DNA of 48,639 bases, filler included, from Bipalium vagum (lineage: Eukaryota): assembly GCA_037834085.1 (NCBI GenBank). It is 2 parts of 2 records of this genome, joined end to end, with 100 filler letters (N's around TTAATTAATTAA, not from the genome) between each part and the next. Parts side by side here need not be neighbours in the genome. Positions count along the whole stretch, not along the records: positions 27,794 to 48,639 come from JBBMKC010245463.1; 1 more part is not named here. One strand, 5' to 3'. The notes under the pieces were generated by a model that searched no databases, was not told where the DNA came from, and was given only the letters and a program-made list of their open reading frames with translations. This document shows, one piece after another, positions 45,093-47,648 of the stretch. The translations under genes and the position numbers were made by a program. Each line of letters opens with the position of its first letter. The first letter of the stretch is position 1.

Positions 45093-47648
45093 ATGCGTTA
45101 CAACGAATACGGTTCAACAACCATCATTAAGAACGATGAAAAAAGTTCAGATCAATCTTCATCGATCCGATCCGAAGACAACGAGAATGCTGCTTTCGAC
45201 AATTGCAATATCGATGCCAATTGCCGTTATAATTGCCAGAAAAATGACAGCCAAATGGAGTGCTTTAACAGTCCTTACGTGCCATCGAATAACAAGACCC
45301 AAAAGGGTATTTTGACCACAGCCATAAGCATCGATGATGGATCAAAGACCACGTCGATGAGATCACTGGCAAAAAGAACGATCAATCTCAGGTTTCCGGG
45401 AATGCAGACGTCCACTTCGAAATCTTTGTTTATCTTTTCCGAAGAAAATGTCATCAGAAAATATGCGAAAATTATCATCGACTGGGGATATCCTTTTATG
45501 AATTTGTTTAATTTTATTTTATTTTAATTTTCGATTGTAAAGTATTTTTAGAAAAACAACCACTTAACATTGATGAAACATATTGGATGGGGGAAACGTT
45601 GGTTTCGTATTTTATAAAACGGTTGTTGCGTTAGGTTTCTCAACAAATGAGGTAGGTGTTTCCAGACGAGTTTTAACATGAGCTTAGTTGTTTATTTGAA
45701 AGTTTTAAGAGAAGGAATTTTGTTGAAGAAGAAAGGAAGTTCTCTTTCCGGTTCATACTGTAAAGAAAACTCGAATGGAATAAATTTCAATTCTATGCAA
45801 GATTTTGGAGAATATTTTGTAAATTTTTTCTCCACGAAATCTAAGAAATTTTTCAGTGATGAAATAATTATTTTATCTGACTAATGGAAAAAGATTATCG
45901 ATGCAAAAGGTGCATGTGTAATTTAAATGAATATTTTTGCTTTACTTTTTCTGTTCAGTTTCAATTTTTATAAAATACGAAGAAACGAATATACCCACCC
46001 AATATAGATGTATTTCCAAATGATCATCATGTTAATTCGATATTTAGTATCTAAGTTTTAAAAAATATTTTTCTATTTATCTAAAAGTAACCTGCACCTA
46101 AATCAAAAAGGTTCAGCTTTGTTCTACAATAAATCTATGCGATATGTTTCTCAAATAAAATAGAAAAAACTACATGAATTGAAATATAGAAGTTTTGTCT
46201 CTTTTACATTACTTATCTGGCTTATCGCCAACAGATTACCATTCGTTTAAGTCTGTGCATGCATTTCTTTCCAAACAAAGTTCATGGAAACCACTGAGGT
46301 ATTGACAGTGATATGGTTCATTTTTCCAAATTTTATATCAAGATGGAAAAATAAATCATTATTAGCACAAATGCATTGATAACAATGAAAAATATTTTGA
46401 TTAATAAAATGTAAATAGTTTTTTATGATTTACTTTTGTTACTAATTAAAAACCAAAATTTCATTGGAGACATAATATTATGTCTTTTAAATGATGTAAT
46501 TTTAACATTAATTCATCAATTGTTTGTTAAAATCTGGCATTATAACTGACATATATAGAAGGGTTCTCGGGTTGTCATCCACTGAAAATTAGCATATTTC
46601 AATTACTGATATAATCCTAGAACACTTTAGGCAGGAGAATATGTTATATTATAACTCATAAGCATGAATTATTTTTACCCAAATGTCGGCCTATTTCCAT
46701 ATAATATTTGATTTATGGCTGGCTATAAGAAAATAACCTGTTTATCTAACCTCTTTATTTAATAATTGTTGAGAAATATAATTTTTGTTTACTATTAATT
46801 ATTTATTGACAAATATGATTTTGTTTTAATGAAATTATGGATTTATGATAATTTTTGTTAATATCATATTAGAAAATATAATAAATAATTTAATCATAAA
46901 TCAATAAAACGATTATGATACTTTTTATTTCTCTTATTTCACGATTAATATAATTTTTGGCAGAAAAAAATTTTAAAAAAACAAATTTTTGGAATTATTT
47001 TAAGAAAAGTATTATAAAGATTAAAGTCAGGTAGGAAACTATTATGACTTCAAAAAGACATCGATTGAAAAGAGATAATTTAAGACGAAACATTAAACTC
47101 GGTTTGTCGGAATATTATTCAAACGATTATAACAATTTTAGACTTCCTAAACATTTATTATGGTATTGAGTCGCAATATTTTTCATCTATTTATTTATAA
47201 TTGTTTAAACAAATAGTAAAAATATTATTAGAAAATTCAGTTAAATACTTTATTCTAAAGCAATTAGTTTAATAATTGCAAAATAAGGAAAATATTTCTC
47301 CTACTTTAATGAATTTCTTTGACTTTATTCTCAGAGCGAAAACCATTTTTAAAACAAGGTTTTAATATATATTTCTTTTAAAAGAAAATTTTATATTAAT
47401 ATTATATATATATACTAAAAATATAAAATTCTCTTTCCCCATAAATAATTAATTTCCTTTTATAATATATTGAAAAATTTATTGATTTTTTTATAACAAT
47501 AATTCATAATCATTATTATTGATCTCTAACTCAATATATTACGCCATTCGAATATATGGTTTTATTGACAATTCTGGCCAACTGTTGTGTACTGTCATTG
47601 GAAAGACATTTACCAAAAAAAGATAAAACGCCTCTGGCTGAGAAACTG
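45093..47648 (+). CDS. Voltage-gated calcium channel alpha-1 subunit, Cav2 (cacophony/UNC-2/CACNA1A-like). First two coding exons 45093-45487 and 47543-47648; the gene continues beyond the window
   Basis: Spliced translation ...[58 protein letters not shown] matches the Cav2 N-terminus, domain I S1 helix and HLP..DKTP loop. Confidence 0.93.
45488..47542 (+). other. U12-type (minor spliceosome) AT-AC intron, 2055 bp
   Basis: 5' site ATATCCTTT; branch-point-like TCTCTAAC at 47523-47530; terminal AC at 47541-47542. Removing it restores the frame (GG|G). Confidence 0.93.
45583..46002 (+). mobile_element. Internally deleted mariner within the U12 intron
   Basis: Imperfect TIRs (TTGG.TGGG...TTCGTATTTTATAAAA) flanked by TA. 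Internal [15 protein letters not shown]...WKKIIDAKG is a mariner C-terminus. Confidence 0.75.

Follow-up and report, generated by a model that had tools for sequence, protein, structure and literature searches.

A probable U12-type AT-AC intron before helix IS1 of a Cav2 calcium channel gene in a flatworm contig

The sequence that separates the first two coding exons of a Cav2 calcium channel alpha-1 gene (Table 1) is very probably an ancestral U12-type AT-AC intron, situated before helix IS1 and predicted to be a substrate of the minor spliceosome. The window, meaning the whole stretch of 48,639 nucleotides that was analysed, is made up of two stretches, the second of which is the whole of contig G000:C245463 and carries this intron; the contig is likely to come from the land planarian Platydemus manokwari. 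The splice signals, the reading frame, the genes for minor-spliceosomal snRNAs and proteins, and the pairings between snRNAs and intron were observed or computed, and from these we infer splicing in vivo at the junction 45487^47543. The intron is a real yet expected example of an ancient intron, because its position has long been known and its lineage is known to keep the minor snRNAs.

Table 1. Positions of the exons, predicted splice signals and repeat remnants in and around the Cav2 intron, counted along the window.
Feature	Position	Strand	Details
Cav2 alpha-1 first coding exon	45093..45487	+	presumed start ATG; ends ...IIDW + GG, phase 2
U12-type AT-AC intron (predicted)	45488..47542	+	2,055 nt, phase 2, ATATCCTTTT…TCTCTAACTCA…AC, before helix IS1 of Cav2
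U12 5' splice site ATATCCTTTTA	45488..45498	+	predicted 8 bp with own U11 5' end, 8 bp with own U6atac box
Decayed mariner 3' remnant (transposase C-terminus and 3' end)	45771..46013	+	belongs to a dispersed repeat family
Another mariner-like 3' remnant, more decayed	46183..46471	+	LSPTDYH resembles Mos1 YSPDLAPSDYH
U12 branch site TCTCTAACTCA	47523..47533	+	predicted 9 bp with own U12, including UGAGU:ACUCA
AC acceptor	47541..47542	+	terminal dinucleotide of the Cav2 AT-AC intron
Cav2 exon 2 (G + PFEY...AEKL)	47543..47648	+	helix IS1; followed by GT donor

Signals, reading frame and contents of the Cav2 intron

A preliminary description of this DNA had proposed U12-type AT-AC signals, and these are present: the donor ATATCCTTTTA, beginning at 45488, matches the U12 5' splice-site criterion RTATCCTTT, and TCTCTAAC (47523-47530) is followed by a 10-nt spacer (47531-47540) and then by the terminal AC. 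The donor 9-mer is itself common in the window (five copies, counting both strands), so its position is what counts; at a fixed position its probability is approximately 1.7e-5. The motif TAACTCA lies 3-22 nt upstream of 2 of the 1011 AC dinucleotides on the plus strand of the contig. The branch A would be 47528 or 47529, which is 13-14 nt from the end of the intron, and a scan of the sequence found no AG dinucleotide between 47460 and 47604. The polypyrimidine tract was described as absent, and indeed no pyrimidine run lies between the branch site and the AC, but this carries little weight in a genome so rich in AT, with pyrimidines making up 64% of the 28 nt that precede the final AC versus 51% of the intron as a whole.

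Joining 45487 to 47543 gives a single open frame and restores IIDWG|PFEY exactly, in agreement with the preliminary description, which also assigned the gene correctly to Cav2: the best PDB matches of exon 2 are Cav2.1, Cav2.2 and Cav2.3 (E 6e-10 to 1.5e-8), against 0.02 or worse for Cav1. Exon 2 aligns to residues 142-171 of Cav2.1 and to positions 4-31 of Ion_trans, which puts the intron at the D1S1 location directly before IS1; this position, rightly taken to be ancestral, is published as conserved across Cav and Nav genes (PMC6259924). The N-terminus of exon 1 aligns with a homolog (P0122) from the same Met, and the closest named homologs of this exon are flatworm proteins. An in-frame exon 3 (EQSEKYF...) and later exons of domain I are located on another contig (G000:C199687), which starts with the same (AAT)n run that ends G000:C245463; to judge from these sequences, the Cav2 gene likely continues there.

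If the gene were a pseudogene, or if nearby GT-AG sites were used, the AT-AC signals would be relics, as the transposon debris inside the intron might suggest. This is extremely improbable, because exons 1-3 are open and conserved, all seven frame-keeping GT-AG alternatives in the tested range delete IS1 and only the AT-AC join restores IIDWG|PFEY, and both of the Cav2 first exons that were found in the assembly, two in all, precede an AT-AC intron. The assembled contigs run through the Cav2 intron with no joint at the splice sites, which is uninformative on splicing.

The debris itself bears out one part of the earlier proposal of a mariner insertion: decayed mariner remnants are found inside the intron, but no intact element. 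The first remnant (approximately 240 nt) has about 40 matches in the genome at 69-79% identity, and in another copy of this repeat family (L027) a mariner core (PF01359, E 3.6e-8) is located directly upstream of the matching part. The second remnant matches the repeat L014 at 80% over 100 nt, and its only PDB matches, which are non-significant (E 1.3), are to the C-terminus of Mos1 transposase. PDB and Pfam searches with the remnant open reading frame at 45651-45881 gave no relevant match. The window's own mariner open reading frames scarcely match the intron, and the mariner link runs via the other repeat copies.

Elsewhere, the window contains a decayed mariner at 38300-39164 (minus strand; PF01359, E 2.4e-22 for 38673-39164), further decayed mariner elements recognized by eye at 32960-33610 and 19363-19581 (both plus strand), and fragmented pol-like frames of LTR retrotransposons, also recognized by eye, at 16297-18133 (plus strand) and 22720-23692 (minus strand). 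Broken frames with weak Pfam matches at 20661-26800 (plus strand) are presumably Polinton/Maverick-like, with integrase, ATPase and DNA polymerase B. The plus strand also has a Ulp1-like protease (14945-15589; PF02902, E 2e-4), an open frame of 270 aa whose start resembles a signal peptide and for which Pfam gave no match (10012-10821), and the last exon of a syntaxin (4365-4775; SNARE PF05739, E 1.4e-14) that we take to be syntaxin-16-like.

Minor-spliceosome genes, predicted pairings and the source of the contig

Of the four minor snRNAs for which a search had been proposed, three are above the cut-off in the Rfam search of the genome, each as one gene with its recognition motif intact: U11 (92.6 bits versus a cut-off of 39; locus L005), U12 (71.1 bits versus 53) and U6atac (39.6 bits versus 33; locus L003), the last being 94 nt long and lacking the 3' stem-loop of the model. 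For U4atac there is a diverged candidate below cut-off. Rfam family searches for U4atac gave nothing at E<=0.001 and a single unrelated match at E 9.7; a strict-complement pattern gave 30 matches versus 27 in the control, and the 20 of these 30 that were scanned against Rfam included no U4atac; a second pattern gave 7 matches versus 16 in the control, one of which was U6atac itself while the other six included no U4atac. The third pattern tried, which was modelled on the Schmidtea sequence, gave 9 matches versus 4 in the control, and yielded the candidate, L111. It has stem II, the 5' stem-loop, stem I with the assembly's own U6atac, and the Sm site AATTTTTG; of eight loci from this search, it gives the best cofold with U6atac (-39.9); and it is similar to the published U4atac of Schmidtea. 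In Rfam, a 351-nt stretch at this locus matches the U4 clan (E 3.9e-5), the best label being U4 at 29.8 bits, under the cut-off of 46. Because the candidate escapes the Rfam U4atac model, surveys would call U4atac absent.

A search for an ortholog of SNRNP48 (48K), likewise proposed at the outset, found it (E 6e-7 to the 48K chain of 8r7n), and SNRNP25 (25K; 64.7 bits, E 1.8e-10) and PDCD7 (59K; 116 bits) are also present. CENATAC (PF14968) and SCNM1 (PF15803) had no match in this assembly, which is fragmented into 272,664 contigs, in a search that included no positive control. A further CHHC zinc-finger gene (L066, G000:C219187) encodes two fingers and is presumably GTSF1-like.

In the mechanism proposed for splicing of the Cav2 intron, U11 (5' end UAAAAGGA) would pair with the donor at UCCUUUUA and U12 (UGAGUAAGG) would pair with the branch site at UCUCUAACUCA, leaving one A bulged; the predicted duplex of branch site and U12 has 9 bp and -7.4 kcal/mol, and includes a perfect UGAGU:ACUCA extension. 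U4atac would deliver U6atac, the AAAAGGAGA box of which would take the place of U11 at the donor, and the AC located 13-14 nt past the branch A would be joined to exon 1 to produce IIDWG|PFEY. Two mariner fragments would have landed in the middle of the intron and then decayed, with the splice signals untouched. Of the working minor spliceosome announced in the preliminary description, the genes and the predicted pairings are found, and it is from these that it may be supposed to work.

A different fate for the intron would be removal by the major spliceosome as a U2-type AT-AC intron, like the rare AT-AC introns of sodium channel genes. Such a class is known in ion-channel genes (PMC2831892), and the branch site TCTCTAACTCA falls short of the full consensus TTCCTTAAC, its pairing with U12 having one mismatch and one wobble pair, which counts against the minor class. 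However, the U2-type AT-AC introns described in PMC2831892 all have G at +5, whereas positions +4 to +9 of the Cav2 intron are TCCTTT, with C at +5. The predicted 8-bp pairings of the donor with U11 and with U6atac also argue against removal by the major spliceosome, and the GT-AG introns of Cav1 genes in the same assembly are clearly weaker with the same minor snRNAs (-2.1 to -5.1 kcal/mol, versus -7.4 to -8.1 kcal/mol for the Cav2 AT-AC intron). A U2-type identity is thus extremely unlikely, and the U12-type reading is preferred.

The best COX1 of the assembly is 100% identical to that of P. manokwari, and gives a proper reading only with AAA as Asn and ATA as Ile. The COX1 types include L006 (P. 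manokwari), L007 (a second type with the flatworm code) and L008 (another animal, possibly prey), and there are 22 weaker matches including broken copies; since the assembly therefore contains NUMTs or the COX1 of two or more further animals, the species label of the Cav2 contig is likely, not proven. The same COX1 types could mean a mixed sample in which the Cav2 contig is from one animal and the snRNA genes are from another, and consistent with this the snRNA contigs and the window have almost no repeats in common (one match). A mixture of this kind is nevertheless very unlikely, given that the snRNA contigs have 26-27% GC compared to 27.7% for the Cav2 contig, every snRNA has a single copy that is close to its Schmidtea ortholog, and exon 1 has its nearest named homologs among flatworm proteins.

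The same codon in paralogous genes and in flatworm protein records

A search with Cav2 exon 2 found four other exons (L031, L032, L033, L034). One of these (L031; G000:C195359, minus strand) belongs to a second Cav2-like gene and is preceded, at the same codon and phase, by a 102-nt intron of the form ATATCCTTTT...AATTAACTCA...AC, the branch site of which retains TTAACTCA without CC. The other three are Cav1 exons. In L032 (G000:C173219), a 54-nt GT-AG intron of U2 type (GTAAGG...CAG) is located just before the PFEY exon, and in L033 (G000:C79504), which encodes the same protein around the junction, a 50-nt GT-AG intron of U2 type (GTAAAG...CAG) is located at the same codon; with 71% DNA identity, these two could be duplicates or could represent two planarian species in the sample. 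L034 has a U2-like AG acceptor, and its donor was not found on its contig. Two further exons are Cav3-like, one confirmed by search (L096; G000:C14299, near 7294) and one assigned by similarity (L094; G000:C117316, minus strand). Each of these two IS1 exons is preceded by a U12-type branch site (TTCCTTGAC or TTCCTGAAC) and then AC; the Cav3 donors were not found on these contigs. The acceptor is U12-type at both Cav2 and both Cav3 exons and AG at all three Cav1 exons.

Because the intron site is published as conserved, the Cav1 intron has likely been converted from U12 type to U2 type. A wider proposal, put forward tentatively and with the odds somewhat against it, is that splicing control of planarian calcium channels is split, Cav2 and Cav3 depending on the minor spliceosome and Cav1 on the major one, and that many public Cav2 models of flukes are N-terminally clipped by the same intron. 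If this were true, presynaptic and T-type currents, though not L-type currents, would be tuned by the activity of the minor spliceosome.

Gene predictors had been expected to mis-annotate the intron, and in public fluke models Cav2 exon 1 is indeed listed on its own under the name hypothetical protein. Among the representative proteins that match the end of exon 1 (55 matches, reduced to 54 by dropping P0175, a partial repeat match), 48 continue W|xYP and mostly stop soon, which is the translation expected of an ATATCCT donor, the read-through DNA being deduced from the amino acids; three are spliced W|GPFEY, two end, and one differs. The proportion of 48 in 54 does not equal the rate of mis-annotation, because in clusters built at 50% identity the full-length channels collapse together and the truncated models stay separate. 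The named read-through models are fluke and monogenean proteins labelled hypothetical or unnamed that run through W-G-Y-P-F (P0121, P0123, P0126-P0130), and exon 1 stands alone in records from Paragonimus, Opisthorchis, Fasciolopsis, Echinostoma, Heterobilharzia, Trichobilharzia and Protopolystoma. The Cav2 model of Schistosoma japonicum is spliced correctly (W|GPFEY). The separate filing of exon 1 in these fluke and monogenean records is a warning for annotation and, like the contrast between the Cav paralogs, a by-product of modest use.

Comparison with known minor introns and snRNAs

The U12-type AT-AC intron at D1S1 is conserved in the alpha-subunit genes of Cav1, Cav2, Cav3, Nav1 and Nav2 channels (Fux et al. 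2018, PMC6259924). The Cav2 intron described here is like it in its pre-IS1 position, its donor ATATCCTTT, its AC acceptor and the short distance from branch site to acceptor; it is unlike it in belonging to a new species and in its branch site, which is TCTCTAACTCA here and TTCCTTRACYCY there, and unlike that set of genes, two Cav1 copies here have a GT-AG intron of U2 type. A duplication of flatworm Cav1 into Cav1A and Cav1B is mentioned in PMC8980814, and each of the ten CACNA1 genes of mammals contains one or more minor introns (PMC8767276). The Cav2 intron extends a well-known conserved intron to one more species, and leaves views on the loss of the minor spliceosome unchanged, triclads not being thought to lack it.

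In the triclad Schmidtea mediterranea, all types of spliceosomal snRNA are present, including a U4atac that is below the cmsearch threshold yet validated by RT-PCR (Schmidt et al. 2018, PMC6312358). The preliminary description had considered that the intron would be notable in a taxon thought to lack U12 splicing; since the source is likely to be a triclad, and the minor snRNAs of Schmidtea are published and validated by expression, this does not apply. The assembly resembles Schmidtea (PMC6312358) in having U11, U12, a U6atac of approximately 95 nt without the 3' part of the model, and a sub-threshold U4atac, all close in sequence; U6atac, compared by eye, is the same as the published one at 48 of the first 49 nt. 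The start of U11 is UAAAAGGA here and UAAAAGGG in Schmidtea, position 8 being A here and G there (PMC6312358), so that the pair formed with position +4 of the intron would be A-U instead of G-U. The Schmidtea study covers snRNAs, and its passages on them contain no discussion of target introns (PMC6312358).

Schistosomes are reported to have the full snRNA set (PMC2770079), Schistosoma has minor introns, and flatworms are not named among the depleted clades in the relevant section of PMC10639083. Schmidtea, Dugesia and Girardia do not appear in the supplement of that survey, the largest one searched, and so the contrast of Cav1 with Cav2 and Cav3 concerns a clade missing from its species list. 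Flatworm terms had no match in the main text of PMC2396436 and PMC2846911 or in the supplement of PMC11347168, and in PMC4603911 U6atac appears only in a reference. In a literature search, to which subscription papers were mostly out of view, none of the titles and abstracts returned dealt with minor introns of Platydemus or of Cav genes from triclads.

Conversion of U12-type to U2-type introns is reported to be much more common for the GT-AG subtype (Lin et al. 2010, PMC2831892), where the Cav1 genes of Drosophila and human (Ca-alpha1D and CACNA1D) are listed with a GT-AG U12 intron that may not be the one at D1S1. The Cav genes of this assembly are like the conversions of PMC2831892 in that GT-AG introns of U2 type are found where paralogs have U12-type introns, and unlike them in that the contrast is seen between paralogs inside one genome, in which U12 signals ending in AC are retained by Cav2 and Cav3. 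A U2-type intron in Cav1 and U12-type introns in Cav2 and Cav3 within one genome fit the published model of subtype-dependent conversion.
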